A stretch of DNA of 32,000 nucleotides from an uncultured Alphaproteobacteria bacterium. Lineage in GTDB: Bacteria; Pseudomonadota; Alphaproteobacteria; Rs-D84. The notes beneath the pieces were generated by a model. The model did not search any database. It was not told the DNA's origin and saw only the letters and a list, made by a program, of their open reading frames with translations. The stretch spans positions 780,001 through 812,000 of the forward strand of contig OZ007020.1 in NCBI GenBank assembly GCA_963931495.1. Reading direction: 5' to 3'. Made by a program: the position numbers and the translations under genes. Shown here piece by piece: positions 6,168-20,887 of this stretch (within the stretch, counting starts at the first letter, position 1; each line of letters opens with the position of its first letter).

Positions 6168-6179
6168 AAAGTTTCGCAT

Positions 6180-6255: not shown

Positions 6256-6266
6256 AAATTCAGTAT

Positions 6267-6549: not shown

Positions 6550-6564
6550 ATCTATCGGTATAAT

Positions 6565-7020
6565 TCAATATTTAATCGCATACATGCATTCCAACATCTT
6601 TGGAACGTTGTCTGGTTTAATACCATTTAGCAATTTGACCGAAGCAATTGAACCAAATGGCGCATAAAACTTTGGTTGTATGACGCTTTTTGTATTATAT
6701 TCATTAAATTCATAATATTTTGCGATGCAGTTATTTATCGCTGCTTCTGTATCCGCGATTGACATATGGATAAAAATATCCCATACCTGGTCAGCAATTT
6801 CATCATATTTGTAATCGTCAAACCGATAGTTGTCATAAAAGTATTCCAAAACTTGTTTTGATTGCGCCTCTATCAGGTCGGATATATTTGCAGGGAAATT
6901 ATATCTCGGGTGCGATGCGCGGTATATGTCCAGCTTTTCTTGATTTACGCCCCACGCATTATCAACGCCAGCATTTGCCGCAAACGGCAACATAAACAAC
7001 AGCAATACCAGTTTTTTCAT
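6565..7020 (-). CDS. Secreted protein; paralogue of the GH108 core of the upstream gene, lacking the catalytic EGGY motif
   Basis: Signal peptide MKKLVLLLFMLPFAANA. 'NAWGVNQEKLDIYRASHPRYNFPANISDLIEAQSKQVLEYFYDNY' aligns by eye with 'NAGITKGALDRYNTDHPNFNFPHNVRELTPEQAVQIYKEDYYDER' of ORF 7052..7909. Confidence 0.6.
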   Translation of the reverse strand: MKKLVLLLFMLPFAANAGVDNAWGVNQEKLDIYRASHPRYNFPANISDLIEAQSKQVLEYFYDNYRFDDYKYDEIADQVWDIFIHMSIADTEAAINNCIAKYYEFNEYNTKSVIQPKFYAPFGSIASVKLLNGIKPDNVPKMLECMYAIKY

Positions 7021-7051
7021 ACAGTCATTATCAAAATAATAACATTAAAAA

Positions 7052-7909
7052 TCAATATCTTTCTGTACGTGCCGTCCAACCATCGCCATATTTGTTCCAA
7101 GTTGAAAGTCCTGCCAAATATTCCAAACGCTTTTCCTTCAAAGCATCCATAAAAGCCGCTATGTCTGAATTGGGGATATTATTTAGCGCATTGATTGTGT
7201 CATTGCCCATAATACCATCAACAGCCAATTTTGTGTTTGTGTTTTCGTTTAATGTTTCCTGAACTATGCGACTGACAGCAGAAAATTTACTCATAACCCC
7301 CATATCAAAAATAGCACCAGCAATACGGTCGTTTTCTATTTCATTTATTCGTCGTTCGTCATAGTAATCTTCTTTATATATCTGAACGGCTTGTTCTGGT
7401 GTTAATTCTCGTACATTATGTGGGAAATTAAAGTTTGGGTGATCTGTATTATATCTGTCTAATGCACCCTTAGTTATTCCTGCATTGGTAGGTTGATCAA
7501 TAAGGTTCGGATTATCTACATACCCTCCTTCTTCTGCCATAGTGTGTAATATTATTTTGTCGCGTCGTTCATCACCGATAGGCTTATCGTTGTCATCAAC
7601 TTCGCATTCTTCTATCCAACAGCGACAATTAATATGATGCGGGAAATTTGGTATTTCTTCTTGGTGTTCATAAATTTTGTCCGCAAAACTGGCACAGTCA
7701 TCACACGTTTTTTCATCATCAATCGCATGCCACACCCATACAGTTCGCACAGAAATATTGCGCCCAGTTGAATCTGTAAAACTTTTTCCATACTTTTGGT
7801 TAAAATAATCCTTAACTTGTTTAGCCACATTTTCGTGATTTGGGTTATTGAGGTTGGTATAAGCATCACTTGTCATTAAGTCTTTGATGTTGTTTGGTAG
7901 TTTGTTCAT
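7052..7909 (-). CDS. Fusion protein: MuF/SPP1-gp7-type C-terminal motif plus GH108 muramidase plus PG_binding_3-like domain
   Basis: N-terminal part 'WHAIDDEKTCDDCASFADKIY...PNFPHHINCRCWIEE' is the phage head-morphogenesis MuF motif. 'AEEGGYVDNP...NAGITKG' is the GH108 catalytic region. 'KLAVDGIMGNDTINALNN' is a peptidoglycan-binding repeat. Confidence 0.75.
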   Translation of the reverse strand: MNKLPNNIKDLMTSDAYTNLNNPNHENVAKQVKDYFNQKYGKSFTDSTGRNISVRTVWVWHAIDDEKTCDDCASFADKIYEHQEEIPNFPHHINCRCWIEECEVDDNDKPIGDERRDKIILHTMAEEGGYVDNPNLIDQPTNAGITKGALDRYNTDHPNFNFPHNVRELTPEQAVQIYKEDYYDERRINEIENDRIAGAIFDMGVMSKFSAVSRIVQETLNENTNTKLAVDGIMGNDTINALNNIPNSDIAAFMDALKEKRLEYLAGLSTWNKYGDGWTARTERY

Positions 7910-7951
7910 TGTATATCCCTGGGTTGTAAAAAAATGCTATATGATGGGAAA

Positions 7952-7976
7952 TAAAAAAAGACGACCAATGTCGTCT
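7952..7976 (-). terminator. Intrinsic terminator upstream of the MuF-GH108 gene
   Basis: Minus-strand agacgac-attg-gtcgtct hairpin (7 bp) followed by a T-run. Confidence 0.6.
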
Positions 7977-7991
7977 GTTATGCGGACGCGT

Positions 7992-8019
7992 ATTATACTA
8001 TAAAAAGGTAATTTTTCAA
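7992..8019 (-). promoter_or_regulatory. Near-consensus sigma70-like promoter (TTGAAA-16-TATAAT) firing into the terminator at 7952..7976
   Basis: Read on the minus strand: ttgaaa aattacctttttatag tataat acgcgtccgcataacag. Confidence 0.5.
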
Positions 8020-8146
8020 TATATTTATGTCTTTACATCACGTCGGGGCATATACCGCATTCGGCCAGCAGCGACCCAAAATCCCATTTCACAATCATGA
8101 AATCACGAATATATTTTTGTCCCGATGTTCGTATCAATTTAATAAG

Positions 8147-8216
8147 TCCGCCCCAGAAATAAAAAACGCCCAACGGGCGATTTTTATTTATGTGCACAGG
8201 ATGCGGATGAGAACCG
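8147..8216 (+). repeat. Repeat copy B: last 9 nt of tRNA-His, terminator and conserved downstream block
   Basis: 'tccgccccagaaataaaaaacgcccaacgggcgatttttatttatgtgcacaggatgcggatgagaaccg'. It matches copies A and C except for homopolymer lengths. Confidence 0.8.
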
Positions 8217-8311
8217 GCGAGAAAGCCGTTCGAACCGCTGCAAAAAGGCGGACGAGAGTACGCCGGTTGTGCGAATGCACAATTTTGCAAGGTGATGAAG
8301 CGCAGCGAAAT

Positions 8312-8401
8312 AATCCGGTCATCCGCCCCAGAAATAAAAAAACGCCCAACGGGCGATTTTTTATTTATGTGCACAGGATGCGGATGATAACCGCGGTTCG
8401 C
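8312..8401 (+). repeat. Repeat copy C: last ~19 nt of tRNA-His, terminator and conserved downstream block
   Basis: 90 nt, near-identical to 6326..6415. Its hairpin with flanking A/T runs can also terminate the minus-strand phage operon that ends at 8417. Confidence 0.85.
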
Positions 8402-8416
8402 CGTGGCAATGTTTAA

Positions 8417-8674
8417 TTACTGTATTACCGCTGTTTTTATTAATGCAACATCTTCACGAATTGTGTCTATTTTTATCTGCAACTGGCCCAGTCCGGTTTC
8501 CAGAATCGTCGTACGATTTTCCAGCGCGGTTATGCGACTGTCGGCGCGATGCAATTCATCCAATGACGAATCTTGGCGCGCAACCCAGTATATAACCCCG
8601 GCAACAAACGCAATTAAAAACCAACTGTTCCGTAAAAAATCCAACACCCCAATTGCGCCCAGTTGTCGTTTCAT
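8417..8674 (-). CDS. Small membrane-anchored coiled-coil protein (i-spanin-like architecture)
   Basis: 85 aa with an N-terminal TM helix (WFLIAFVAGVIYWVA) followed by a heptad-rich helix. Start overlaps the stop of the upstream ORF. Function not established. Confidence 0.55.
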   Translation of the reverse strand: MKRQLGAIGVLDFLRNSWFLIAFVAGVIYWVARQDSSLDELHRADSRITALENRTTILETGLGQLQIKIDTIREDVALIKTAVIQ

Positions 8675-8865
8675 TATTTCCCCCGTTCAATCATATTTTC
8701 AATTTGGTGAACCAATGCACGTTGCGCTTCCAGACTGCGCAGTTGGGCATCTGTGGCATCCGGCCCCAGTACGCGTTCAATTGTAATTTTGCGCAAGTGC
8801 GATAATACCGCTGCGCCACTGGTCGTAGAAAATGTTCGTGCATAATTTTGTTCTGTATCTTTCAT
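8674..8865 (-). CDS. Small conserved phage protein downstream of portal (Bbp19-like by recollection)
   Basis: Start moved to the Met after SD 'aggag' (MKDTEQNYARTFSTTSGAAVLSHLRK...). The resemblance to small proteins next to podophage portals is from memory only. Confidence 0.5.
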   Translation of the reverse strand: MKDTEQNYARTFSTTSGAAVLSHLRKITIERVLGPDATDAQLRSLEAQRALVHQIENMIERGK

Positions 8866-8881
8866 TGTCATCTCCTGGGGC

Positions 8882-10105
8882 TTATAAAATTGTTTCAGCA
8901 GCAGCCATTTGCGCAATGGGTGCAATGTATTTTAATTCAGCGTCGCTGTTCAGTGTAATCCGGTCAATAATGCCACGACGGGACAAAATCTGTAATCCGC
9001 GTTCAACCAACGGACGAATAAATTCATGCAGCAATCGTCCATATGTTGCCCCCAATATGCGGACCATATCCGCGCTGCGCGCCATAATTTCTGTGGCGGT
9101 CATTTCTTTTTCAGACAGCAACCCCAGTCTGTCCGCCAGCATTGTGTGGCGTATGCGTTCACGCAAGTCTTTCAAAACAATCTGGGACACGTCAAAATTC
9201 GCCCCAGATGTTAACGGCGTCAATCCAGATGACCCAACGGCTTTGGGTATAATTGCCCCAGGTGTTAAATTAATATTAGACAAATTTATAACACCGTCAT
9301 CGTCGGCCTGCCATATGCCGGAAACAGCAATCGTTGCGTTTTTCAACACCAATTCAACAACCTTGTTTGCTGTTTTAATGTCTGGTAATGCACGCAACAC
9401 CGGCCCACGGCCGTATTGTTCGCCACTGGCCACAGACCAGCGGAATATGATGTACGGGTTTGTTTCAAATTTTCCGGTGGCAACAATGTTATTTTCTAAA
9501 TCCCCACCAACATCCATCCATGCGGTGAATTCCGTATCAACCAAACTTTGCACCAACCGCAGTGGTGTTTCAGGGTCATTTTTTATTGTATCGCGCAAAT
9601 TAGCCGGTGGGGTCCAAGATGGATATTTTTCCATGACTTCGCGCGCCGGCATGGTCGCCGTATGAAACACGGCCCCATTCAGTATCGCAATGTCACGCAT
9701 CGGAATCGCAGTAAACGAAAATGCCGATGACGCACCAATCGGATTTTCCGCCATAAACAGGCATGCTGTGCCCAGAATTATTAAATCCATATAGCACTGG
9801 TGAACAGTGGTGTAAAAATTAGAATCATTTAGATTCGCACGTAACGCCATTGTTGCAGTTTCTGCATCGGGTGATTGTGCACTTTCTGGGACCAATGAAA
9901 TCCACAATGATTCTGGCGGTGTCAGCAATGAATAAATTGATGCCGCCAAATTATCTGCGGCATCCGCAGCGGTGGCATCAAACATCATCGCCGCATCATC
10001 ATCAGCGGTTGGCATAGTGTACCGCAATGCTGCATCCCAACGATTTAACCATGGTGTACGCAAATCCAGCGCACGGCGATACATCTGTTGTAAATTTTTT
10101 TTCAT
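8882..10105 (-). CDS. Portal (head-to-tail connector) protein, T7-like family
   Basis: 407 aa. N-terminus 'YRRALDLRTPWLNRWDAALRYTMP' and 'LAASIYSLLTPPESLWISL' resemble the Head-tail_con family. Lies immediately downstream of terminase. Confidence 0.75.
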   Translation of the reverse strand: MKKNLQQMYRRALDLRTPWLNRWDAALRYTMPTADDDAAMMFDATAADAADNLAASIYSLLTPPESLWISLVPESAQSPDAETATMALRANLNDSNFYTTVHQCYMDLIILGTACLFMAENPIGASSAFSFTAIPMRDIAILNGAVFHTATMPAREVMEKYPSWTPPANLRDTIKNDPETPLRLVQSLVDTEFTAWMDVGGDLENNIVATGKFETNPYIIFRWSVASGEQYGRGPVLRALPDIKTANKVVELVLKNATIAVSGIWQADDDGVINLSNINLTPGAIIPKAVGSSGLTPLTSGANFDVSQIVLKDLRERIRHTMLADRLGLLSEKEMTATEIMARSADMVRILGATYGRLLHEFIRPLVERGLQILSRRGIIDRITLNSDAELKYIAPIAQMAAAETIL

Positions 10106-10137
10106 GTTATATATCCTTTTGTTTGTTTATAAAAATT

Positions 10138-10156
10138 CCCCCGACAAATGCCGGGG
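10138..10156 (-). terminator. Weak terminator-like hairpin between the terminase C-half and portal
   Basis: Minus strand ccccggc-attt-gtcgggg (7 bp including one G.U), followed by 'aattttta'. Confidence 0.35.
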
Positions 10157-10197
10157 AAACCTGAAATGCGAAACAACATTTTTATGCTGTTTCTGGG

Positions 10198-10226
10198 GTT
10201 ATAGTATTTCGTCTTTATACATTGAA
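10198..10226 (-). promoter_or_regulatory. Promoter-like TTCAAT-17-TATAAC overlapping the end of the terminase C-half
   Basis: Minus strand: ttcaat gtataaagacgaaatac tataac. Confidence 0.35.
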
Positions 10227-11063
10227 TTCTGTATTCGCAGAAAATGGGCGTACAGACTGGCCCAATGGACGGACCGGTGTCGGAATCGCGCATATTGCGC
10301 CGGCAACGGCATCTAAACCATCATCATGACCAACATATCCGTATGGCGCCCAACCAATCATTTCAGATATCAGTGGGGTTGACTGGATACGTCGGTGTGC
10401 GTACATACGCCCTGTCGTTAAAATCGGTTCAATGGAATCCAATATTCTTGTTTCTTTGTTGTGATGATTTGATACAGGCACAATGTGGATTCGCCGATTT
10501 TGGCGCATGGCGACATCACGCATAATTTCTGGCAATGCAACCCCCATACCATTTGTTTCCACATATATGCGCCCCAGACAATGACGGCACATAAAATCCA
10601 GCACCATTTCACACTGGCGGGCCAATGGATGTAAATCATTATCTGGAACAATCAAGTACAATACATCATGGATGAAAATATTTTTTGTCTTGTCATCCCG
10701 GTATACCAGAACACAAACACTGGCGTCTGATTTCTTGTGCGCGGTTGATGGGTCCCAGTATGCGGTTGCGCCCGTGATAACATGGTCACCAATTCGCGCC
10801 CTGCGTGAATCAAAATCATCGTCATACAGGTGCAGTGCATCTGGATCCAGGCGCGCACGTTCGGGCGCAATAAATTCCAACATCATTTGCGCTGAAAAAT
10901 ATCGGTCGCCGACCGTATGGCGCAATTCATCTATGCGCGACAGCGGAAACAATTCTGGCCATGCGGGCGTACCATCAGTGGAAATGATTGGGATTTTTAA
11001 TTCCCGATATCCGCATAAAAAAGGCGTTGAAAAAGCAAAATTTTTATATACTATATTTGACAT
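10215..11063 (-). CDS. terL: Large terminase, C-terminal half (lid plus RNase-H-like nuclease), as a separate ORF of a split gene
   Basis: 'PAWPELFPLSRIDELR...FSAQMMLEF', then the nuclease acidic motifs 'AYWDPS', 'YVETNG' and 'HDDGLDA'. No internal stops. Its ATG overlaps the divergent dnaB ATG (CATG). Confidence 0.8.
   Translation of the reverse strand: MSNIVYKNFAFSTPFLCGYRELKIPIISTDGTPAWPELFPLSRIDELRHTVGDRYFSAQMMLEFIAPERARLDPDALHLYDDDFDSRRARIGDHVITGATAYWDPSTAHKKSDASVCVLVYRDDKTKNIFIHDVLYLIVPDNDLHPLARQCEMVLDFMCRHCLGRIYVETNGMGVALPEIMRDVAMRQNRRIHIVPVSNHHNKETRILDSIEPILTTGRMYAHRRIQSTPLISEMIGWAPYGYVGHDDGLDAVAGAICAIPTPVRPLGQSVRPFSANTEFNV
11027..11054 (+). promoter_or_regulatory. Promoter for dnaB (TTGAAA-16-TACTAT); the predicted start site falls at or next to the ATG, suggesting a leaderless mRNA
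   Basis: ttgaaa aagcaaaatttttata tactat atttgac ATG. No SD before the ATG. Confidence 0.45.
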
Positions 11064-12615
11064 GGACTTTACCCCAAAAACATTACCAACAAATCTGGAA
11101 GCCGAACAGGCCGTATTGGCCGCGGTATTGATGAATAACCGCGCGTTGGAACGTGTGTCAGAATTCTTGAAACCAGAACACTTTTCACATCCGGCGCACC
11201 AAGAAATTTATAAACTGGCGGAACGCCAATTTGCCGCCGGTATACCGTTTGATATTATTACCGCAAAAAATTATCTGGACCAGCAAGGGGTGCTGGAATC
11301 CGTTGGCGGTGTTGAATACCTGACGCAATTGGCGGGGGCCGGGGCAACCGTTGTAAATGTTGAACAATATGGTCGCATCGTGTACGACAACGCAATGCGT
11401 CGCGAATTAATAAATCTGGGACAATCCATTACCGATGCGGCATATACCGAAGATTTGGATAACCCAGTATCGGCCCAGATTGAAACCGCAGAACAAAAAC
11501 TGTTTGAAATGGCGTCGTCGGGTGTTTCTGAACGCGAAGTATCGTCAATTGCAACCGCATTGCAAAGTGCCCTGCAAGAAGCAGAAATCGCGTACAAGGC
11601 CGATGGAAAACTGTCTGGGTTGACCACGGGGCTGAACGCGTTGGACAAATCAATCAGTGGGCTGCATCATTCTGACCTGATAATTATCGCCGGGCGGCCC
11701 GCGATGGGTAAAACAACACTGGCGATGAATATTGCCTTTAATGCGGCAAATGCAATTCTGTATGGGCGCGCAAATGAAAAGTACAAGGGCGCCGTCGCAT
11801 TTTTCAGTCTGGAAATGTCATCGTCACAATTGGCGGCACGTGTGCTGTCATCACAATCAAAAATTCCGGCATCGGCCATGCGCGAAGGTTCATTGACCGA
11901 TGAAGATTTCTTGAAAATGTCGCAATATTCGGCCGCAATTGGTAAAGTTCCGCTGTATATTGACGATACACCGGGCATGTCAGTACCAATGATTCGCACA
12001 CGGGCACGTCGTCTGGCGCGGAAATGTGGCGGGATTGCATTGATTGTGATTGACTATCTGCAATTAATGACATCACCAGGTGGGCGTCGTAACGATAACC
12101 GCGTCCAGGAAATTTCCGAAATAACACGCGGATTGAAAATGCTGGCCAAAGAATTGGATGTGCCGGTTATCGCCCTGTCCCAGTTGTCGCGCAGTGTTGA
12201 ATCCCGCGATGACAAGCGGCCACAATTGGCCGACCTGCGTGAATCTGGATCAATTGAACAGGACGCCGATATCGTTATGTTCACATATCGTGAAGAATAC
12301 TATCTGGAAAATCGCGACCCGTCACAACGTATTTCTGGTAACACCAATGAAAAGATTATTGAAAGTTATCAAAAACGTTTGGAACGCGCACGTGGCAAGG
12401 CCGACGTTATTATCGGAAAAAATCGTCACGGACGACCAGAAACGGTGCGATTGGCATTCTTTGGTGATTACAGTCTGTTTGACAATCTGGACGAAATGGA
12501 AAGCCGCGCAAATGGCGAATTTATTGATGCGTCGGCGCTAATTAATACCCCCGATGATATGCCTGGGATGCCGTCTGTGGATGCCGACGCAATTCCAGAT
12601 GATATGCCATTGTAA
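11062..12615 (+). CDS. dnaB: Replicative DNA helicase DnaB (517 aa) with an acidic, proline-rich C-terminal extension
   Basis: 'LPTNLEAEQAVLAAVLMNN', Walker A 'GRPAMGKTT', 'IVIDYLQLM', 'ALSQLSR', 'ESGSIEQDAD'. It also has the 'REEYYLE...' insertion that I recall as typical of alphaproteobacterial DnaB. The upstream 130 codons of the track ORF are antisense to terminase and were discarded. Confidence 0.9.
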   Translation: MDFTPKTLPTNLEAEQAVLAAVLMNNRALERVSEFLKPEHFSHPAHQEIYKLAERQFAAGIPFDIITAKNYLDQQGVLESVGGVEYLTQLAGAGATVVNVEQYGRIVYDNAMRRELINLGQSITDAAYTEDLDNPVSAQIETAEQKLFEMASSGVSEREVSSIATALQSALQEAEIAYKADGKLSGLTTGLNALDKSISGLHHSDLIIIAGRPAMGKTTLAMNIAFNAANAILYGRANEKYKGAVAFFSLEMSSSQLAARVLSSQSKIPASAMREGSLTDEDFLKMSQYSAAIGKVPLYIDDTPGMSVPMIRTRARRLARKCGGIALIVIDYLQLMTSPGGRRNDNRVQEISEITRGLKMLAKELDVPVIALSQLSRSVESRDDKRPQLADLRESGSIEQDADIVMFTYREEYYLENRDPSQRISGNTNEKIIESYQKRLERARGKADVIIGKNRHGRPETVRLAFFGDYSLFDNLDEMESRANGEFIDASALINTPDDMPGMPSVDADAIPDDMPL

Positions 12616-12681
12616 TTTTTATACTTGCCACAGGGATAAAAATTGACTAACATTTTGTCAAGAAATCCCAAGGAGATAACA

Positions 12682-13689
12682 ATGGCGCAAGAAGAAATAA
12701 TCTTTCCAAACAACATCAGAAATATTCGTCTGGCCAATGGTATGAAAATGACAGAACTGGCGCGCCAGGCAAATTTATCACTGTCGGCGGTTTCAAAAAT
12801 TGAAAAAGGCGTGCGTCGTCTGAACCAAAAGCAATTATTAAACATATGCAATATTCTGGGATGCAAACTGTCGGATATATTTATCAAGGAATCCGATGCG
12901 GTTGCCGACCAATGGCAAAATGAAATTAAACGCCGATTGAACGATAACGAAGACAGCGGACTGAAAATATTCGGCAGTGGACTGCGCAAAATTCGCCAGC
13001 AATCTGGAAAAACAATTGCCCAGGCGGCCAAAGATGCCGGTATGACATTGTCTGTGTATCATAAAATAGAAGTTGGACAACGCGAAATATATCAAAATGA
13101 AATTGAACCACTGGCTGAATCGTTTGCGTACAGCGTTGATGCAATGCTGGATAAAATTGCCAATATGTACAAGGCCGGCGAATTAACCAAACAAATTAAC
13201 AAGGTCAAAGAACGTGTAAAATCTGTGTTGGTGCCGGGCAACCCATTGTCTGGATTAGATGTACACAGCAGTTTGTATGGCGCAAAGTTGTATGACAGCG
13301 CACGTAAAAAACTGGTCCCAGTGTTTGGCGTGCCGAATGGGAAATCTATCGTATTCAAAAAAACAGACAAAACGATGATTGTTGCACCAATGCCACTGGA
13401 AGGTCACAAAGGCGTCTATGCGGTTATTCCGAACTCTAAACGATTGGGTGGTTTTATCCCAGAAAAATCATATGTGTTCGCAGATGCAGAAATTCCCGCC
13501 CAGGTTGGTGATTTGGCCGTGTGTCTGGATACGGATTTTGATGCGTTAACACCAAGTAATTCTGGGAACGCACAAATCGCGATTATACGCCAGGATTCCA
13601 AGGGCAAAATTTATGGACAAATTTCTTCACCCGAAGAAAAAATTATCGCCAAAACTATGCACAAGGTCGTAATGATTGTAATGGAATAA
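12682..13689 (+). CDS. Tandem XRE-type HTH protein with a CI/LexA (S24)-like C-terminal domain
   Basis: SD 'aggag' 6 nt before the ATG. Two HTH_XRE units ('IRNIRLANGMKMTELARQANLSLSAVSKIEKG', 'LRKIRQQSGKTIAQAAKDAGMTLSVYHKIEVG'). C-terminus 'VPVFGVPNG...GDLAVCL' has a CI-like fold pattern, but the catalytic Ser/Lys are not clearly conserved. Confidence 0.75.
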   Translation: MAQEEIIFPNNIRNIRLANGMKMTELARQANLSLSAVSKIEKGVRRLNQKQLLNICNILGCKLSDIFIKESDAVADQWQNEIKRRLNDNEDSGLKIFGSGLRKIRQQSGKTIAQAAKDAGMTLSVYHKIEVGQREIYQNEIEPLAESFAYSVDAMLDKIANMYKAGELTKQINKVKERVKSVLVPGNPLSGLDVHSSLYGAKLYDSARKKLVPVFGVPNGKSIVFKKTDKTMIVAPMPLEGHKGVYAVIPNSKRLGGFIPEKSYVFADAEIPAQVGDLAVCLDTDFDALTPSNSGNAQIAIIRQDSKGKIYGQISSPEEKIIAKTMHKVVMIVME

Positions 13690-13714
13690 AAATCATACTC
13701 AGGGGGGATAAACA

Positions 13715-14389: not shown

Positions 14390-14980
14390 TGTGCGATAGA
14401 TTGTATCCAATGTATGTGGTGTGCCGACATAAATCATTGTGCCGGTGGGCGACAGAATAAAATCCAGTTCACGCAACCGTTCACGCAGTGTTTCGCGCTT
14501 TTGTGCCGTGTTGCTGGTATTTGGGACCTCTACATCATCACAAATTATTAAATCTGCACGCATGCCAGTGATGTTACCATGGATTCCTTGGCATACGACA
14601 GACGGTTCACGAATGCCGATTGGCCGATTAATCGTAATTCGGCCACTGGCCCATTCTTTCTTGGCCGACGGAATCAAATCTGCGCATCGCGGATGATTTT
14701 CCAGTATATGCCGTATATGCGCAACCATGCGCGATGACAGATTGTTTTCTGCGGATAAAATCAATATCCTGGTTGCAGGATGTAAATACAGCACACACGC
14801 AGCAAATATCCCAACAACTGTTGATTTGCCAGAATGTCGGAACGCCATCAGTAACCCACGATGCGGCGTATCTGTGAATACAGAAAATAAAAATTCCATT
14901 ATTTTATAATGATGTGCCGGCGTTTCCAGCCCCAGCATTTGATTCCATTCATCCAAAAACACATAAAAATCCGATAACAT
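14381..14980 (-). CDS. terL: Large terminase, N-terminal ATPase half, as a separate ORF of a split gene
   Basis: Walker A 'FRHSGKST', Walker B 'ADLIICDDVE', motif III 'YVGTP'. The ORF ends 'LDTIYRTSD*' about 12 residues after motif III. Confidence 0.85.
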   Translation of the reverse strand: MLSDFYVFLDEWNQMLGLETPAHHYKIMEFLFSVFTDTPHRGLLMAFRHSGKSTVVGIFAACVLYLHPATRILILSAENNLSSRMVAHIRHILENHPRCADLIPSAKKEWASGRITINRPIGIREPSVVCQGIHGNITGMRADLIICDDVEVPNTSNTAQKRETLRERLRELDFILSPTGTMIYVGTPHTLDTIYRTSD

Positions 14981-14993
14981 GACGACATCAACA

Positions 14994-15347
14994 TTAACTT
15001 AATAAATCATCAAATTTATCCAGTAATGATTGCAACAAGTTTGGTTTTTTAACACTGGATTGAGCCTTTTTCAGTCGTTCTGTATTTGATTTGCGCTTCT
15101 CGTCATACGGCTTTTCTGTTTCTGATTTCAGTCGTTTTAACACCGCGCCGGTTGTCATACTGCGTCCAGACACACCAGACGCACCATATTTTGCACGCTG
15201 GGTTGCCAATGTTTTTTTTACTAAATTTGTTTTTTCTTTCTCGTCAGCCGCCATATCAGACAAAATTTTTTTTCGTTCTGATTCCGCTGTTCGTTTTGAA
15301 TCTTGGTAATCCAAAACATCTATGACATCTGATACAAGTTGTCCCAT
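14994..15347 (-). CDS. Basic coiled-coil phage protein; small-terminase candidate by position only
   Basis: 117 aa, K/R/E-rich, immediately upstream of terL, which is the position of T7 gp18. No sequence motif recognised. Confidence 0.45.
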   Translation of the reverse strand: MGQLVSDVIDVLDYQDSKRTAESERKKILSDMAADEKEKTNLVKKTLATQRAKYGASGVSGRSMTTGAVLKRLKSETEKPYDEKRKSNTERLKKAQSSVKKPNLLQSLLDKFDDLLS

Positions 15348-15371
15348 AATCTCACCTTTTATTTACATTTG

Positions 15372-17087
15372 TTATACATTGTAATATCCGTACATAGATA
15401 CAGATAATACAGTTACCGGTAATTGTTCATCACTGGATATTGTCCATGGGGCATCAACAGAATTCTTTTGACATCCCAACATATTTACCGAAATATCACC
15501 ACTGTATCCATTTGCGCCATCATCAAAAATGTAATTAGGAAACTGGACACGCAATCCGTTAATAAATAATGTTTTTGTGTCCAGAACACGCGCCGCAATC
15601 TTTCTGATTTTTAATAAACTGGCGTTATGTCCAGATGCGCGAACCGGTAATCCAGATGCGGTAAATGAAAAATCATATTCCCCGGCATCGTTTAATGCCC
15701 CCGATGAAAAACGTTCCAGATAAAAATTCACACCACGCGCAACAATTACATATGTTTCAGAACCAATTGTTGCCACAGATTTGAATTGACCCTGGGTTTT
15801 ATAGCGCGCCCACCCCGAAATTCCCAATGCAGAATTTTGGTTCAATACCGCCATATCGCCATTTTCCATAACAACAAACAACTGGCGCCATTCTTCGTTA
15901 TATGACATATCTATGGGCGATTGCATCAAGTGTTTCGCCTGGGTACACAAATCATTCGCATTGTAATATTCGCCCAATTGATCCAGACTTAATTCACGAA
16001 TGTCTTTTTCGGTACTGGAAATAAATACTGTTGCCCCCTCTATTTTTTGTGGCGGCAGGTATCGTGTGGCAACACTGCCCACAGATGTGTGCTGTTTGAT
16101 ATCAACAGACGATGGGGTTAATGGCTTGCTGGATATCGCCCATTCGCCAAAATTAGTCAGAATTTGCAAGTTATCACTGCTGACCACGGTACAAATTTGT
16201 TGACGTTGTTGTGATAACAATGTTATGAAAATTGCTTCGTCATCCAGTCCGGTACCAACATCAAAATTATTATGGTGGCCAACCTTGGACATCCAAACAC
16301 CACTGGGCCATGACCGTGAACCACCAAATACCAATCTGTCTTGATGAAATGTGATACTGCACGGCCACCCACGCCGGTCACTGAATGCGGATTCATACCA
16401 ATCAGATACCGGGGCCGACGGTAAACTGTATGTGCCATTAGTATATGCATAAACAACCGTTGGACTGATGTATTCCATTATGTACCATTGTTTATTCATC
16501 AACAGTAAACGTCCGCCTTCGTTTTGCGCGGTCCAAAAATTCTTGTTGGTTGTAAATGTTGCGAAATTATTGCCTTGGCTGTTTGAAGTAACTGTAATTT
16601 TTACATCCTTGGAATCATCAAATCGCATAAACGGGATGTTTATTGACATGTCTGAATCGTTGCGTTCAAATTCAAAGTCGCTTAATTCAAATCCATTATC
16701 CGTTTTGCGCAGTATATACGGTGAATAATCTGGGTGAACGAATATCATCGTATCAAATCGCTGTGCATATTGTATTTTATCCAGTGCACTTAATGGCCAC
16801 GGCGATGGAAGATTAGAAACAACCGCCACACCATCAAAAACCAATAAATTTTTGTTGCCCAGTACCAGTAAATAATTTCCTGTTTCGCCAAATGAAAATG
16901 GAACTAAACGCCCAGATCCGCCCAGCGTATCCACAGACACCAATCCACGTCGGCGCGTCAACCCACCACCAAACATAATATCCATATTTTCCAACATGGA
17001 CAAACCATTCAAATTATCATGCGCAAAAAATTCTGGGGCAACTTCGCCATCCGCAAAAGAATTTTGCGTCTTTATAAATTCAGCCAT
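15372..17087 (-). CDS. Tail tubular protein B / nozzle (T7 gp12-like)
   Basis: 571 aa. N-terminus 'QNSFADGEVAPEFFAHDNLNGL...GGLTRRRG' is typical of podophage nozzle proteins. It follows the gp11-like gene. Confidence 0.65.
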   Translation of the reverse strand: MAEFIKTQNSFADGEVAPEFFAHDNLNGLSMLENMDIMFGGGLTRRRGLVSVDTLGGSGRLVPFSFGETGNYLLVLGNKNLLVFDGVAVVSNLPSPWPLSALDKIQYAQRFDTMIFVHPDYSPYILRKTDNGFELSDFEFERNDSDMSINIPFMRFDDSKDVKITVTSNSQGNNFATFTTNKNFWTAQNEGGRLLLMNKQWYIMEYISPTVVYAYTNGTYSLPSAPVSDWYESAFSDRRGWPCSITFHQDRLVFGGSRSWPSGVWMSKVGHHNNFDVGTGLDDEAIFITLLSQQRQQICTVVSSDNLQILTNFGEWAISSKPLTPSSVDIKQHTSVGSVATRYLPPQKIEGATVFISSTEKDIRELSLDQLGEYYNANDLCTQAKHLMQSPIDMSYNEEWRQLFVVMENGDMAVLNQNSALGISGWARYKTQGQFKSVATIGSETYVIVARGVNFYLERFSSGALNDAGEYDFSFTASGLPVRASGHNASLLKIRKIAARVLDTKTLFINGLRVQFPNYIFDDGANGYSGDISVNMLGCQKNSVDAPWTISSDEQLPVTVLSVSMYGYYNV

Positions 17088-17107
17088 ACGGTTATCCTTT
17101 GTTTTAT

Positions 17108-17626
17108 TCAGAATCGTACATTTATTAACGAAAAATCATCTATGGCATTACTGGATGTCGTTGCACTGTCAATGAATTTCGCCGATTGTAATTCCGATTC
17201 ATACAAAGCCGCCAATGTGCGAAATACAGACTGGTCGCCAATCAGTGGAATGCAAAATTCCATCGCTAATTTTGTCGCCGCCAACGATATGAAGTATGCC
17301 GGCATGGATTCAACATCAACATGAACAATGCACAATATGTTCATTTTGTCTGATGGCGATATAATTTGATTGCCAATAATTTGCCCATTGCATTTCAATA
17401 CGCGCATGCATTCAGACGGCAAGAAAAAATCACCATCGGAATCGCGCACTAAATCAAATGACTTGCATGCAAAGCGCCATGGATGAATGGACAACAGTGC
17501 GTCTATGACCGGATTAAACAAAGTTCGCGATAATTGCGCCGCCGGGGAATCTTCTTGGATTGATTGAATTGGCTTTTCCCCCAGTTTTAATAACGCCATT
17601 GAACATAAATCTATTTTTGTCGTCAT
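17108..17626 (-). CDS. Tail tubular protein A / adaptor (T7 gp11-like)
   Basis: 'IDLCSMALLKLGEKPIQSIQEDSPAAQLSRTLFNPVIDALLSIHPWRFA' parallels T7 gp11 '[44 protein letters not shown]'. Confidence 0.7.
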   Translation of the reverse strand: MTTKIDLCSMALLKLGEKPIQSIQEDSPAAQLSRTLFNPVIDALLSIHPWRFACKSFDLVRDSDGDFFLPSECMRVLKCNGQIIGNQIISPSDKMNILCIVHVDVESMPAYFISLAATKLAMEFCIPLIGDQSVFRTLAALYESELQSAKFIDSATTSSNAIDDFSLINVRF

Positions 17627-17675
17627 TTTTTATCCTGTATGTAAAAAATGGGGCGAACAAACGCCCCAATCAAAA

Positions 17676-17903
17676 TTATGACAAATCACCAACTGTTACA
17701 CTGGTTGACACAGTAATTTTTTTAATACTGGTATTATCAGAACCATTAACGATTACTATATCGCCTGTATTCATCAACGTTTTTACATTGTCAAAATATC
17801 CAGATGCCACGATTGTTGCCAATGTTTCATTTGCCGAATAATGCCACAACGTAAATCCATTTGCATATGCAATTACAGATAAATTTTTATTCTGAAAAGC
17901 CAT
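17676..17903 (-). CDS. Small phage structural-module protein (75 aa), function unknown
   Basis: Intact ORF tightly packed between the capsid and adaptor genes. 'NGFTLWHYSANE...GYF...GDIVIV' pattern. Confidence 0.5.
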   Translation of the reverse strand: MAFQNKNLSVIAYANGFTLWHYSANETLATIVASGYFDNVKTLMNTGDIVIVNGSDNTSIKKITVSTSVTVGDLS

Positions 17904-17939
17904 CTGTTATTCCTTTGATTTATATGATTATTATGATAA

Positions 17940-18776
17940 TTATTCCGACACAGTATCGTCGTCTTTGCACTGCAAGCGAACAATACCATCGTTATCAATC
18001 AGAACCGCGCCTTGGGACATACTGTTGCTGATAAAGTGTGCCGCGCGTTCGCCATGCCATGAAATATCTGTTTTTACTTCTTGGCCACATGCATGTCCGA
18101 TGCTGGTTGCATGATAGATAAAGCAATCACGTTCATCAGTATTCGCCAATGGTAATGCATTGTACATAACCCACGTTATGCCCAACCATTTTTTTGATGC
18201 ACCGCCAGATACCAGCGGCAAATCATTACCAACATAATCCGCCGATACAAATTCATCCAACGACAACAGTTCATTCCACTGGTGCACACCGACAACAGCA
18301 AAGCGACGACCATCATCTGGGACATCGTTTTGATTCATAACTTCTATGGCCGACAAAATTAAATCTTTGGTCAGGCCTGTTGAATAATCGCCCACAGATG
18401 TCGTAGATTGATTCATTGCATTGATAATTAATTCATCTGTTTTGCGACCCAGTGCATACGCACCCGCAGACGCGACAACACGACGTTCATCAACATTTGT
18501 TTTTAATTCATCCAATGCATCAACCCAATCGCCGGCATAATAGTCTTGTAATATACATTCCACCGGTTCATGATTCAGATTCATAACTGGCACAATACCA
18601 TGGCGCGATTTTGTGCTGGCGGTACCACGCCCAACCTTTTGAAATGTTGTTGACGCGCCAACGACCCCAGATTTACTGCGTACCGTTGCGCGTAATTTTG
18701 TTCCCATTTGCTGGTATGCCAAATGAACATCGGCTTCAAATTGTTTTATAAAAACATTATCAACAGAAACAGACAT
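17940..18776 (-). CDS. Major capsid protein (HK97-fold family typical of BPP-1/epsilon15-like and alphaproteobacterial podophages)
   Basis: 278 aa. 'FIKQFEADVHLAYQQMGTKLRATVR...', 'YAGDWVDALDELKTNVDER', 'AYALGRKTDELIINAM'. SD 'aaaggaaaa'. Position after the scaffold gene. Confidence 0.8.
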   Translation of the reverse strand: MSVSVDNVFIKQFEADVHLAYQQMGTKLRATVRSKSGVVGASTTFQKVGRGTASTKSRHGIVPVMNLNHEPVECILQDYYAGDWVDALDELKTNVDERRVVASAGAYALGRKTDELIINAMNQSTTSVGDYSTGLTKDLILSAIEVMNQNDVPDDGRRFAVVGVHQWNELLSLDEFVSADYVGNDLPLVSGGASKKWLGITWVMYNALPLANTDERDCFIYHATSIGHACGQEVKTDISWHGERAAHFISNSMSQGAVLIDNDGIVRLQCKDDDTVSE

Positions 18777-18905
18777 TTAATTTTTCCTTTGGTTAAATTG
18801 AAATACAGTGCGTAAATAAATTACGCAAAAAAAATTTTGAATTGTGGTTATGCATAAAATATGCGCCATAAAACAAAACGCACACGGGTCCGAAACGGAT
18901 TGTCC

Positions 18906-18953
18906 AAAAAAATATTCAGTCTGATGTGCACATAAAATCAGACTGAATATTTT
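18906..18953 (-). terminator. Intrinsic terminator (16-bp perfect stem) upstream of the capsid gene
   Basis: aaatattcagtctgat / atcagactgaatattt with an 11-nt loop (gtgcacataaa). T-run follows on the minus strand. Confidence 0.6.
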
Positions 18954-18954
18954 A

Positions 18955-18980
18955 TATAAAAATACCCCGCAATTGCGGGG
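18955..18980 (-). terminator. Intrinsic terminator just after the H1-like gene
   Basis: ccccgc-aatt-gcgggg hairpin, followed on the minus strand by a T-rich tract. Confidence 0.7.
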
Positions 18981-19003
18981 AATATAAAAAGAATTAATTT
19001 ATA

Positions 19004-19348
19004 TTATTTTCTTTTTGCACATGCCTTTTTCGCCGCCGGTTTTTTGGCCGCAACTTTCTTTACAGCAACTTTTTTCGCAACTGGTTTTTTTGCCGCAACT
19101 TTCTTTACAGCGACTTTTTTTGCAACCGGTTTTTTGGCCGCAACTTTCTTTACAGCGACTTTTTTTGCAACCGGTTTTTTGGCCGCAACTTTTTTTGCAA
19201 CTGTTTTTTTTGCCGCAACTTTCTTTACAGCTGGTTTCTTGGCCGCTGGCTTTTTCGCAGCAACCTTTTTCACCGCCGGTTTTTTAGCAGCAGGTTTAGC
19301 AACAGGCTTTTTCGCGGCAGGTTTTGATTTGAAAATTTTGAATGGCAT
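19004..19348 (-). CDS. Lysine/alanine-rich histone H1-like (Hc/AlgP/BpH-type) DNA-binding protein
   Basis: 114 aa made almost entirely of AAKKP/VAKKV repeats. SD 'aaggagag'. Has its own terminators. The plus-strand ORFs over the same repeats are mirror artefacts. Confidence 0.8.
   Translation of the reverse strand: MPFKIFKSKPAAKKPVAKPAAKKPAVKKVAAKKPAAKKPAVKKVAAKKTVAKKVAAKKPVAKKVAVKKVAAKKPVAKKVAVKKVAAKKPVAKKVAVKKVAAKKPAAKKACAKRK
19047..19181. repeat. Tandem 45-bp DNA repeats (three near-identical units, flanked by degenerate copies) inside the H1-like gene
   Basis: ggccgcaactttctttacagcRactttttttgcaaccggtttttt repeated head to tail. Each unit encodes a 15-aa AAKKPVAKKVAVKKV block. Confidence 0.8.
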
Positions 19349-19453
19349 TCTTCTCTCCTTTTCTATTTGTTGGATAGAACAAATTTTTTTGTTCTTACTT
19401 TATATTTTATATTAATCAAAAAAAATAGTAAAGAAGAAAGTGAATTTTTTTAG

Positions 19454-20110
19454 TTACGAATACAATTTTTTAAATCCATTTTCAATTTTGCGAACGTATT
19501 CTGGATCCATATCACGCCAATATTTTGGGTCACGCATCATGCGACGCAATTCATCATCTGATAAAATTTTTTCACCACCATCATCGGTTTGTACGGTTGG
19601 TTCCATTGACTGCATCATTTGATATATGCCTTGGATTCCCTGGGGTGACGAGCACATTGCATCAAATGCATCATGCGGTAAATATTTTTCACCAAATGTA
19701 TTTATTGCACGTAATGCATCATACATTTTTTCGGTACCACCAAAAAAATTTTTTAATTCTGAAATTGCATCTGATTCATTTTTTATTTCAAATAAATCTG
19801 ATAACACAGGTGATAAAAATTCATTCGCAATATCATAAATTTTTTCAACTTGGGATGATGTTAAACCAATTTCTAAAAATTTTTCACGCAACGAATCGTC
19901 ATCAAACATTGGGCATGTTGGATATTCATTTGCATTTTCTGGCACGCCAATTGCGCGATTAAATTTTGCACGTAATTCAGAATCTGATTCAGACGTTGGT
20001 ACAGAAATCATTGTGCCAATCTTTTTTTCTAGTTCTGTATACGATTTTAATAACGCATCTGTATTTAACGTACCATCTTTATTCAGAAATTTTTCTGGAA
20101 TTTTTTCCAT
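19454..20110 (-). CDS. Capsid scaffolding protein (putative)
   Basis: Start at the internal ATG after SD 'aaaggaaag' (MEKIPEKFLNKDGTLNTDALLKSYTELEKKIG...). Acidic, helical, upstream of the capsid gene. The N-terminal motif recalls podophage scaffold proteins. Confidence 0.6.
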   Translation of the reverse strand: MEKIPEKFLNKDGTLNTDALLKSYTELEKKIGTMISVPTSESDSELRAKFNRAIGVPENANEYPTCPMFDDDSLREKFLEIGLTSSQVEKIYDIANEFLSPVLSDLFEIKNESDAISELKNFFGGTEKMYDALRAINTFGEKYLPHDAFDAMCSSPQGIQGIYQMMQSMEPTVQTDDGGEKILSDDELRRMMRDPKYWRDMDPEYVRKIENGFKKLYS

Positions 20111-20300
20111 TTTTCTTTCCTTTGGTTTCACTGGATTTGCGCAGAAAATAAATTCCGCCAAACATAAATATTGATTGCATCATTGTGAATACATCTGTGT
20201 CGCCCACCATATACGCGCCAACCGCAGACAGTATTCCAATGCCTGATATAATATACGTCCGGTGACCTGATAAAAATCCACCACTGATAATTTTGTTCAT
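20079..20300 (-). CDS. Holin-like small membrane protein
   Basis: MNKIISGGFLSGHRTYIISGIGILSAVGAYMVGD...MMQSIFMFGGIYFLRK followed by a basic tail. Two TM segments. Lies directly after the lysin gene. Confidence 0.5.
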   Translation of the reverse strand: MNKIISGGFLSGHRTYIISGIGILSAVGAYMVGDTDVFTMMQSIFMFGGIYFLRKSSETKGKKNGKNSRKISE

Positions 20301-20317
20301 AAAAATTCCCCTGGTTG

Positions 20318-20728
20318 TTACAGATAAAATAAAAATCCGTCTATGTCGGCGATATATCCGCGTGCGGTTGCCCATGACGGAATCACATCAGAACGATGAA
20401 AGCATGTCGCACCATAACACATATCACCCAACGTGCCGTTCAGCATTCTGTGCACAACACGCAGACACATTTGAAATCCACAATTTATTACATCCACAGA
20501 AATTAATTTATTATCTGGTGATTCTGGACGTAACACATCAAACAAATTAACATCTGATATAACATCATATAAATCGCGTCCAGTAACACGTGCATTATTT
20601 GCAACCAGTGATGCCATCATTTCAACCAATCGTAATGATTGCGCATGCGTTTGTGCATATAATATACGTGCGATTTTATATTCCAGCAATTTCGTTTCAT
20701 CTGGATTTTTTATCAATGTTAATTGCAT
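20318..20728 (-). CDS. SleB/CwlJ-type cell-wall hydrolase (phage endolysin-like)
   Basis: 'ARILYAQTHAQSLRLVEMMASLVANNAR' and 'GATCFH' match the Hydrolase_2 pattern (ARTIYGEARGE...NR; GATHFH). Confidence 0.7.
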   Translation of the reverse strand: MQLTLIKNPDETKLLEYKIARILYAQTHAQSLRLVEMMASLVANNARVTGRDLYDVISDVNLFDVLRPESPDNKLISVDVINCGFQMCLRVVHRMLNGTLGDMCYGATCFHRSDVIPSWATARGYIADIDGFLFYL

Positions 20729-20751
20729 GTTGTATATTCTCTTGCAGTTAT

Positions 20752-20778
20752 AAAAAAAAAGCGCACAACAATGTGCGC
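20752..20778 (-). terminator. Intrinsic terminator t2 immediately upstream of the lysin gene
   Basis: Minus strand gcgcaca-ttgt-tgtgcgc, followed by a run of about 9 T. Confidence 0.7.
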
Positions 20779-20785
20779 GGTCATG

Positions 20786-20816
20786 AAATAAAAAATCCGC
20801 CGAAAAATTTCGCGGA
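20786..20816 (-). terminator. Intrinsic terminator t1
   Basis: Minus strand tccgcg-aaattttt-cggcgga (bulged stem), followed by tttttta ttt. Confidence 0.5.
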
Positions 20817-20842
20817 CAAATTTATTCCTGTTTATGCGTGTC

Positions 20843-20871
20843 AGTATATCATATTTTGATGTAAAAGTCAA
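20843..20871 (-). promoter_or_regulatory. Near-consensus promoter (TTGACT-17-TATACT) at the head of the phage-derived operon
   Basis: Minus strand: ttgact tttacatcaaaatatga tatact gacacgcataaacagg. Located between the birA stop and t1/t2. Confidence 0.55.
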
Positions 20872-20887
20872 GAAAATATTTTTTACA

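Follow-up and report, generated by a model that had tools for sequence, protein, structure and literature searches.

A T7-type virion gene cluster beside birA

The window analysed here is a 32,000-nt stretch of DNA from an uncultured alphaproteobacterium of the GTDB order Rs-D84 (GenBank assembly GCA_963931495.1, contig OZ007020.1, positions 780,001–812,000). Adjoining the host gene birA, it contains a conserved core of ~12 kb (8417–20871) of T7-type podovirus genes, identified by open reading frame (ORF) listing and family searches. The T7-type virion genes comprise portal, scaffold, major capsid protein (MCP), adaptor, nozzle and a T7-type large terminase subunit (TerL), the last of these encoded in two pieces. 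No description of this Rs-D84 cluster was found in the literature searched, and it is considered here a strong, so far undescribed candidate for a gene transfer agent (GTA)-like system. An earlier note, made from the letters of the window, had taken the region 6565–20871 for a domesticated, GTA-like set of podovirus particle genes. Matches to Pfam, PHROG and PDB entries bear out the portal, MCP, scaffold, adaptor, nozzle, split TerL and lysis genes, all ORFs of the cluster are intact, and the GTA-like reading is supported overall as a candidate label. The extent given in the note is too wide, since the segment at 6326–8401 is a separate islet, and the conserved anchor of the cluster is birA and not, as had been supposed, tRNA-His.

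To assess conservation, a nozzle alignment was run against a set holding a single genome for each GTDB species, which gave 108 relatives; 80 loci were retrieved and inspected. Ratios of non-synonymous to synonymous divergence (dN/dS) are pairwise Nei–Gojobori values across species, and are rough because dS (~1.3) is near saturation. Free phages of the same structural lineage are the human-faecal L092 (MT838907) and L117 (IMG/VR 3300010211_000044), each with an MCP 62% identical to that of the window, and Pelagibacter phage EXVC031P Hodr, whose MCP is 44% identical.

Counted from birA, the first minus-strand gene encodes a putative lysin of 136 aa (20318–20728) with weak matches to SleB/Hydrolase_2 (Pfam, E = 1e-3) and to the endolysin family phrog_938 (E = 1e-4). 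It is present in all 66 loci that reach that far, has a dN/dS of 0.30, and has a homologue in Hodr. The next minus-strand gene encodes a 73-aa protein (20079–20300), whose likely start, MNKII, lies within a 98-aa ORF; two hydrophobic segments, a basic C-terminal tail and a location kept across loci point to a holin-like function. The scaffold gene (19454–20161, minus strand) matches Phage_T7_Capsid, the T7 capsid assembly protein (E = 2e-9), and is found in all loci with a dN/dS of 0.22. Between scaffold and MCP lies a lysine-rich, histone H1/Hc2-like ORF with AKKP-type repeats (19004–19348, minus strand; Pfam HC2, E = 3e-16; NCBIfam score under the cut-off). It is present in 72 of 72 loci at a length of ~75–175 aa depending on the species; L092 and L117, the phage relatives, have no such gene. 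Its product is possibly a DNA-condensing packaging partner, or else a plain host nucleoid protein.

The MCP (17940–18776, minus strand) matches Phage_capsid_2 (E = 3e-72) and PDB entry 9eg4 (E = 6e-23), and has a dN/dS of 0.08. It is followed on the minus strand by a 75-aa protein (17676–17903; phrog_18004, with no assigned function; dN/dS 0.13), whose gene occupies the same spot in phages L092, L117 and Hodr. The tail is represented by a T7 gp11-like head-tail adaptor (17108–17626, minus strand; phrog_394, E = 1e-31; Pfam Tube, E = 1e-3) and a T7 gp12-like tail nozzle (15372–17087, minus strand; phrog_376, E = 1e-80; PDB 8ck1, “Tail Nozzle”, E = 6e-29), both with a dN/dS of 0.19. A basic 117-aa protein, a helical hairpin in its AlphaFold2 (AF2) model, follows at 14994–15347 (minus strand; dN/dS 0.22). 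The N-terminal piece of TerL (14381–14980, minus strand; dN/dS 0.11) contains the ATPase core, including Walker A, Walker B and motif III, and matches positions 271–459 of phrog_38 (E = 6e-41). The C-terminal piece (10215–11063, minus strand; dN/dS 0.16) carries the lid and the RNaseH-like nuclease, and matches positions 469–710 of the same family (E = 2e-36) as well as Terminase-T7_RNaseH-like. Beyond it, the portal of 407 aa (8882–10105, minus strand; dN/dS 0.08) matches Head-tail_con (E = 1e-80, profile positions 2–440 of 489). The last two conserved genes, both on the minus strand, encode a Bbp19-like protein of 63 aa (8674–8865; PF25181, E = 6e-11), which also follows the portal in L092, L117 and Hodr, and an 85-aa protein (8417–8674; weak match to phrog_736; dN/dS 0.16), whose N-terminal membrane anchor and coiled coil suggest an i-spanin-like function.

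The two TerL pieces are set apart by three plus-strand genes (11062–14389), so the description of the cluster as entirely minus-strand in the earlier note is incorrect. These genes encode DnaB, a cellular-type replicative helicase (11062–12615; DnaB_C, E = 2e-100; dN/dS 0.06), a regulator that combines two HTH_3 domains with a C-terminal domain of ~165 aa belonging to no known family (12643–13689; HTH_3, E = 3e-20 over two stretches; dN/dS 0.09), and an all-helical protein of 224 aa with no assigned family (13715–14389; AF2 predicted local distance difference test score of 80). The note had also listed replication genes as missing. A phage replication module is indeed lacking, but DnaB inside the cluster and PriA at 29360–31567, both of cellular type, are present in the window.

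No gp15/gp16-class ejection protein and no full-length fibre were found in the window, and the gap between nozzle and TerL holds only the 117-aa gene. The large internal-core proteins are missing as the note had stated, since the window has no counterpart of the 783-aa and 1247-aa proteins of Hodr. Core genes flank the cluster, with bamA, rseP, cdsA, uppS, frr, tRNA-Ala and tRNA-His on one side, and birA, virB11, lpxI, a tRNA methyltransferase gene and priA on the other.

Conservation, selection and phage ancestry

All 80 retrieved loci belong to Alphaproteobacteria or to Candidatus Enterousia metagenome-assembled genomes, and derive from the guts of humans, chickens, ruminants, horses and other hosts. 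Portals identical residue for residue to that of the window were found in the same gene order on contigs of up to 958,617 bp. A search with the portal gave 4,664 homologues at E <= 1e-10, and the top 120 are 88–100% identical. Every locus that is long enough has the same gene order: a 149-aa gene, birA, lysin, holin-like gene, scaffold, H1-like gene, MCP, 75-aa gene, adaptor, nozzle, 117-aa gene, a fibre stub where present, the N-terminal TerL piece, then the 224-aa, HTH and DnaB genes on the opposite strand, and finally the C-terminal TerL piece, portal, Bbp19-like and 85-aa genes. Amino acid identity to the window is 79–93% for MCP, 76–92% for portal, 65–94% for DnaB and 53–83% for BirA. Conserved synteny and a dN/dS below 1 were what the earlier note had proposed to look for, and the same order beside birA in 80 loci, together with dN/dS values far below 1, answers to both.

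The dN/dS values of the phage-like genes range from 0.08, in MCP and portal, to 0.30, in the lysin, and those of the host comparators DnaB and BirA are 0.06 and 0.16. In close pairs, where synonymous sites are unsaturated, pN/pS is 0.04–0.10 for 11 joined phage-like genes and mostly 0.03–0.12 for five host genes. Among the close pairs, one has 102 synonymous against 15 non-synonymous differences in the phage-like genes and another has 327 against 69; comparisons within the window species give 15–23 against 2–3. Phage-like and host genes have about equal pS in each pair (0.067 and 0.070; 0.334 and 0.345), and the pairwise dN of MCP and portal tracks that of host genes (Spearman 0.74). Only two internal stops occur in ~1,500 orthologue copies, one in the MCP of L062 (codon 83) and one in the portal of L086 (codon 64); each could be an assembly error or a genuine recent inactivation.

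None of the ORFs scanned in the 32-kb window encodes an integrase, an excision protein or a phage replication module, and none of these was found within 10 kb on either side of the portal in four loci with Pfam listings (the window species and two or three relatives). The note was therefore right that an integrase is missing from the window. It had named a nearby integrase or replication module, or a strain-specific cluster under relaxed selection, as contrary evidence; neither appeared in the window, in the surroundings of these four loci or, for conservation, in the 80 species. No att-like repeats flank the core, and the only ones present bound the tRNA-His islet. From its synteny and substitution pattern, the cluster is inherited vertically under strong purifying selection.

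The free phages support the descent of the Enterousia cluster from a real phage lineage. In L092 and L117 the genes are ordered as portal, Bbp19, scaffold, MCP, 75-aa gene, adaptor and nozzle, and the longer fragment of L117 continues with an ORF resembling the 117-aa gene, a fibre, small genes and an intact TerL. MCP, portal, Bbp19-like protein, scaffold, 75-aa protein, adaptor and nozzle all have homologues in L117, MT838907 and Hodr, except that the adaptor was not detected in Hodr; L117 and Hodr also share a homologous fibre N-terminus, and L117 a homologous TerL. The differences are extensive. The free phages have a full early region, longer portals and nozzles, a single TerL (507 aa in L117) and a 653-aa fibre, and have neither the dnaB/HTH insert nor the H1-like gene, both of which the Enterousia cluster has gained. 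Lost from the cluster are the whole early, replication and lysogeny region and the large internal proteins, its portal is shortened at the C-terminus (407 aa against 527–567 aa in the phages), and its nozzle is shorter too. A 123-aa ORF just upstream of TerL in L117 is a candidate small terminase subunit (TerS) and has no homologue in Enterousia; no TerS was recognised in the window, in keeping with the statement in the note that no TerS is recognisable.

The 117-aa protein had been assigned to the TerS position. However, it adjoins TerL only through the loss of a 182-aa fibre gene, which 57 of 83 loci retain between the 117-aa gene and the N-terminal TerL piece. It has a weak tblastn match (29% identity) to a 143-aa ORF between nozzle and fibre in L117, which was not recovered in the reverse search. 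The structure matches of its AF2 model are non-significant, several of them being podovirus “internal virion protein (B)” entries. In relatives, and on weak evidence in L117, the gene precedes that of the fibre, which speaks against TerS; T7 has its internal virion proteins gp13/gp14 at this place, and a protein of that class is the likelier identity.

The retained 182-aa gene is a fibre stub, homologous to the first ~160 residues of the 653-aa fibre of L117, and has a dN/dS of 0.15 and no stops. In 17 loci, all of which have the stub, a 158-aa Mtd_N tip protein (E = 1.5e-16) is encoded on the same strand as the 85-aa gene, ~0.6 kb downstream of it. A neighbour-joining tree places the stub as ancestral and lost ~10 times. 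The window species is sister to a clade with both fibre parts, which makes its own loss recent. Fibres are thus missing from the window, as had been noted, but this is a recent loss in one lineage and not a property of the system, most relatives having kept the stub. Selection on the remaining genes is equally strong in the 25 fibre-less species.

The two-piece terminase, the dnaB insert and expression signals

When joined, the N- and C-terminal pieces align as one segment (residues 5–469) to intact T7-type TerL. In the intact 507-aa TerL of L117, residues 2–204 match the N-piece, with 51% identity in the N-terminal half, and residues 194–474 match the C-piece. The cut lies in a surface loop right after ATPase motif III, where “...GTPHTLDTIYRTSD*” is followed by “MSNIVYKNF...”; it is at the same site in all species, with conserved junction peptides, and is clean, with no residues lost or duplicated. 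No variation occurs at Walker A (GKS/T), Walker B (DDxE) or motif III (GTP) in any of 80 species, or at the nuclease motifs WDP, ExNG and DDGLDA in any of 72. Among 1.84 billion representative proteins, the nearest non-self TerL relatives that are full-length are single chains of 450–510 aa, and shorter entries may be fragments. The two polypeptides would thus appear to cooperate as a two-piece packaging enzyme. In the literature searched, neither a conserved terminase in two pieces nor a dnaB gene lying within one was found described.

For the inserted DnaB, the NCBIfam replicative-helicase equivalog NF006606 gives 624 bits, above its cut-off of 540, and phage_DnaB gives 416, under its cut-off of 499; the protein is judged to be of cellular type on this basis. 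The palindrome CATG holds the overlapping ATG codons of dnaB (11062–11064, plus strand) and of the C-terminal TerL piece (11063–11061, minus strand); a gap of 7–8 nt separates the two genes in relatives. The 224-aa gene and the N-terminal TerL piece are convergent and overlap by 9 nt at their 3′-ends (14381–14389). With such overlapping junctions, the promoter and ribosome-binding site of each gene must lie within the coding sequence of the other. The 224-aa protein has no match in Pfam, PHROG or NCBIfam, and its AF2 model resembles no PDB fold; it has 1268 homologues at E <= 0.001, and the 120 listed are 72–100% identical and unnamed.

The insert recalls the skin element in sigK of Bacillus and the heterocyst nifD and fdxN elements, in which a multi-kb insert interrupts a gene needed only in a terminally differentiating cell. 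It differs from them in having no recombinase and no border repeats, in that both halves of the interrupted gene are complete ORFs with their own start and stop, and in carrying an essential gene. Programmed excision restoring TerL was accordingly discarded, as neither border repeats nor a recombinase were found in or near the insert. An intein or a duplication at the split was set aside given the clean loop cut without extra or repeated residues. An S24 (LexA/CI-like) domain at the C-terminus of the HTH regulator was likewise rejected, with no match to PDB profiles or Pfam.

The deeper-branching locus L115 (IMG/VR 2820136564_000001, 900–11400; MCP 73% identical) has a TerL likewise split by dnaB, which indicates that the split is old and that dnaB is its constant passenger. 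In L115 the place of the HTH and 224-aa genes is taken by one for an 834-aa protein that matches no Pfam family; portal, scaffold, lysin and birA were not found in the stretch examined. Lineage-specific inserts of 0.75–2 kb occur in the gap between DnaB and the C-terminal TerL piece or between that piece and the portal, in L032 (17386–18145) and L068 (16610–17500 and 18350–20390), and their ORFs have no Pfam matches.

Just after the birA stop, a sigma-70-like promoter (20843–20871, minus strand) consists of TTGACT, a 17-nt spacer and TATACT, and scores 10/12 with a TG extension; CTTGACTT is found at the promoter position in 88% of 66 species. Between promoter and lysin ATG lie two tandem hairpins that resemble leader terminators, each with a T-run (20761–20816, minus strand; terminator scan call at 20778–20761), and both are conserved in the 66-species alignment. 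Further intrinsic terminators on the minus strand follow the H1-like gene (18965–18980; terminator scan and conservation) and the MCP/75-aa pair (17649–17668; terminator scan and alignment). T7 has a terminator after its capsid gene, which the one after the 75-aa gene recalls. The alignment also reveals conserved minus-strand hairpins in the MCP leader (18925–18890 and 18827–18809). Upstream of MCP (18890–18925), an inverted repeat CAGTCWGA...TCWGACTG with a loop of 7–19 nt and a T-run is followed by a stem “GCGCAT...ATGC”; these repeats look like RNA hairpins and not like protein sites of fixed spacing. A sigma-54 promoter at this place, suggested by a conserved “TGGCGC...TTGCA” resembling a -24/-12 element, was rejected in favour of a probable hairpin, as the GG–GC spacing varies from 8 to 15 nt among species, and CtrA boxes (TTAA-N7-TTAA) were dismissed as well, being present upstream of the units in 0–1 of 66–81 species.

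The promoter followed by tandem terminators has the layout of a late operon controlled by antitermination, and such control is plausible here; no antiterminator was identified. No strong minus-strand terminator is predicted across the dnaB insert, and more speculatively, late transcription may run antisense through dnaB.

A candidate gene transfer agent and its alternatives

The cluster is very probably a domesticated, phage-derived module. It is chromosomally fixed and vertically inherited, it is under purifying selection, and the regions scanned contain no genes for self-propagation, all of which are features of GTAs. Since the interdependent head, portal, tail-tube, terminase and lysis set has been conserved together with both terminase activities, the most economical function is the production of DNA-filled particles released by lysis, as in a GTA-like viriform, and this reading is favoured with somewhat better than even confidence. 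That the particles actually transfer genes is more tentative, and is rated slightly below an even chance. The complement of lysin, holin-like and spanin-like proteins would be compatible with release by lysis, and the missing TerS with non-specific packaging.

The following course of events may be proposed. A short-tailed T7-type phage would have been domesticated anciently and inherited vertically in Candidatus Enterousia as a particle system owned by the host, i.e. a viriform. The retained set would correspond exactly to what is needed for building and releasing a DNA-filled particle. Host RNA polymerase would start at the promoter behind birA and would have to read through the terminator hairpins, presumably under read-through or antitermination control. 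The two TerL pieces, without a sequence-specific small terminase, would fill heads with host DNA, and the cell would then lyse and free the particles, as with other GTAs. RcGTA has its accessory fibre and spike genes at other loci, and its DNA enters by means of the competence proteins of the recipient. On this precedent, DNA entry in a system without ejection proteins would need the uptake machinery of the recipient. A fuller version is unlikely to hold in all its parts: an order-wide, independently evolved GTA from a phage with a T7-type virion, the first of its type in Alphaproteobacteria, retained in genomes of less than 1 Mb with little metabolism left, with a two-piece terminase and an operon interlocked with dnaB, in which late-operon transcription antisense through dnaB and the regulator gene would commit the producer to replication arrest and lysis.

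Several points weigh against the reading as a GTA. Particles, packaged DNA and transfer are all predictions for a system known here from its genes. The activity of a terminase split within its ATPase domain is likewise only predicted, and no precedent was found in a brief literature search. No TerS is recognised, the large ejection proteins are absent, and the crossing of the envelope by DNA is unexplained. About 10 separate losses of the fibre stub, including that in the window, are odd for a device that adsorbs to cells. The absence of an integrase applies to the window and to the surroundings of the four loci with Pfam listings, and that of TerS and fibre to the window. A head too small for its own genes, a classical criterion for GTAs, is not established: seven chains in the closest solved capsid entry may mean a T=7 ancestor, and a head of that kind could in principle accommodate all 12 kb of the cluster.

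Some of these same features would suit a domesticated particle with a function other than gene transfer, such as a PBSX-like killer or defective particle, lysis-coupled release of DNA, or delivery to partner cells. This explanation draws equally on the conservation and selection evidence, and the repeated fibre loss and the lack of ejection proteins and TerS fit a particle that has no need to inject DNA into kin. Rs-D84 bacteria have been proposed to be obligate symbionts or parasites (PMC12306168), and the authors who described FpGTA, the GTA of Faecalibacterium prausnitzii, themselves leave a PBSX-like role open (PMC12946183). PBSX, too, derives from a phage, is fixed in the chromosome and does not propagate, and it packages host DNA and leaves the cell through lysis, as is predicted for the cluster. 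It differs in having a contractile tail and in being a killing particle; nothing in the Enterousia cluster suggests a killing mechanism, and a short podovirus tail has none of the contractile or membrane-depolarising machinery known to kill. Moreover, the strict conservation of the ATPase and nuclease motifs shows packaging itself to be under selection. A role of this kind is considered fairly unlikely.

Separate cellular jobs without any virion, with the capsid as a compartment shell and the terminase and portal in chromosome processing, would account for the host genes (dnaB, the HTH regulator and the H1-like gene) interleaved with phage genes and for the dispensable fibres. This is very unlikely, as the full interdependent set is intact and in order in ~80 species, and adaptor and nozzle have no conceivable role in the absence of a portal vertex. 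A helper-dependent satellite, comparable to the capsid-forming phage-inducible chromosomal islands (PICIs), would make its own heads and borrow fibres, TerS and ejection proteins. The head-centred gene set, with neither fibres nor TerS in the window, would agree with it, and related free phages with compatible parts occur in gut samples (L092 from human faeces, MCP 62% identical). It is nevertheless regarded as extremely improbable: no integrase was found in the regions scanned, no att sites surround the core, the position adjoining birA is fixed clade-wide, the cluster encloses an essential host gene, and its pS, equal to that of host genes, shows that the element does not move. An ordinary decaying (cryptic) prophage, which the incomplete gene set, the interrupted terminase and the phage-like islet at the neighbouring tRNA-His might suggest, is effectively ruled out by vertical inheritance under strong purifying selection, with synteny in all 80 species inspected, dN/dS of 0.05–0.3, two internal stops in ~1,500 copies and invariant catalytic motifs.

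As a candidate GTA, the cluster has one close parallel in the literature searched. FpGTA has been described as the first podovirus-like GTA, with a head and packaging operon of 10.5 kb; its fibre and lysis genes form an operon of their own, which was not detected in seven of 12 strains (Borodovich et al. 2026; PMC12946183). The remark in the earlier note that no described GTA built on a T7-like head and tail tube was known is therefore out of date. Both systems occur in gut bacteria, both have a chromosomal operon of about 10 kb with TerL, portal, scaffold, MCP and short-tail proteins that is near-ubiquitous in the genus, and in both the fibre or lysis genes are separable and missing in many strains and replication genes are lacking. 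They differ in that FpGTA belongs to Firmicutes, has a TerS-like gene, and has had its particles and ~9 kb of packaged host DNA proven, whereas the Enterousia cluster has a split TerL with dnaB inside and no TerS, and is known through its genes.

With RcGTA and CcGTA (Rhodogtaviriformidae) and BaGTA, the cluster shares vertical inheritance of a phage-derived cluster of ~14–15 kb in Alphaproteobacteria, purifying selection, the lack of integrase and replication genes, and, if the prediction holds, release by lysis. RcGTA-type GTAs have another tailed architecture, with none of the Head-tail_con portal, Phage_capsid_2, adaptor or nozzle, and the Enterousia cluster in turn has no CtrA-type boxes upstream of its units. 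Its family hits are all of T7 type (Head-tail_con, Phage_capsid_2, Phage_T7_Capsid, Tube, Phage_nozzle and Terminase-T7_RNaseH-like), with no long-tail genes, and these families set it apart from the RcGTA cluster. The different architecture points to an independent domestication. If particles are made, the cluster would be a further independent case of phage domestication, in a T7-type virion lineage otherwise represented only by the 2026 Faecalibacterium system.

Enterousia genomes are ~0.75–1.0 Mb in size and lack most biosynthesis and respiration, and the bacteria are thought to depend on partner cells (PMC12306168). Phage genes are not mentioned in the Enterousia and Rs-D84 papers, that one included, and no paper on the cluster was found in the literature searched. 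The host clade consists of widespread, uncultured gut bacteria of humans and livestock. The ~12-kb core amounts to ~1.3% of a genome of 0.96 Mb from which glycolysis, respiration and most biosynthesis have disappeared, and selection of housekeeping strength on it in so reduced a genome implies a substantial role in fitness. What purpose GTAs serve has long been asked, and the retention of this core speaks to that question. Its oddities include a terminase that is split in the ATPase domain yet conserved, an essential replication gene in a phage-derived operon, and the loss of fibres without relaxed selection elsewhere.

The islet of ~2 kb at tRNA-His (6326–8401) is delimited by 90-nt direct repeats (6326–6415 and 8312–8401) that are 99% identical, with a degenerate third copy at 8135–8224. 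As surveyed over 6268–8401, the repeats begin in the 3′-end of tRNA-His and include the downstream terminator hairpin. Between them are encoded, on the minus strand, a fusion of MuF, GH108 and PG_binding_3 identified by family matches (7052–7909) and a partial paralogue of 151 aa with a signal peptide (6565–7020), which is 34% identical to the MuF-GH108 protein over 62 aa. Both genes exist as the earlier note described, but they are not members of the conserved cluster, being missing from it in other species apart from a partial GH108 match in L066. The islet, judged by its repeats and distribution, is an integrated, species-specific element apart from the cluster; no integrase remains in it, and it may be the remnant of another phage. 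MuF fusions are usually cargo proteins packaged in heads, and by analogy the islet might supply wall-degrading cargo to the particle.

The Rfam scan of the window gave two tRNAs and nothing else. The ORFs at 20719–20961 and 8027–8416 were taken as spurious, as they overlie the promoter/terminator leader and the tRNA-His-derived repeats, respectively. Type IV secretion genes (virB11 and weak VirB8 matches) lie within a few kb of the cluster in many species on either side, at 23357–24352 in the window, after the 85-aa gene in L011, L012, L014, L016, L023 and L028, and at 19653–21224 in L001; in so small a genome this may be a coincidence. Between the 149-aa gene and virB11, a gene at 22768–23091 encodes a small membrane protein whose C-terminus carries a SHOCT domain (E = 9e-8). 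The IMG/VR entries L097–L114 are fragments of the bacterial locus, including dnaB and birA, that have been filed as viral contigs, and such misfiling has probably introduced false “viruses” into catalogues of gut viromes.

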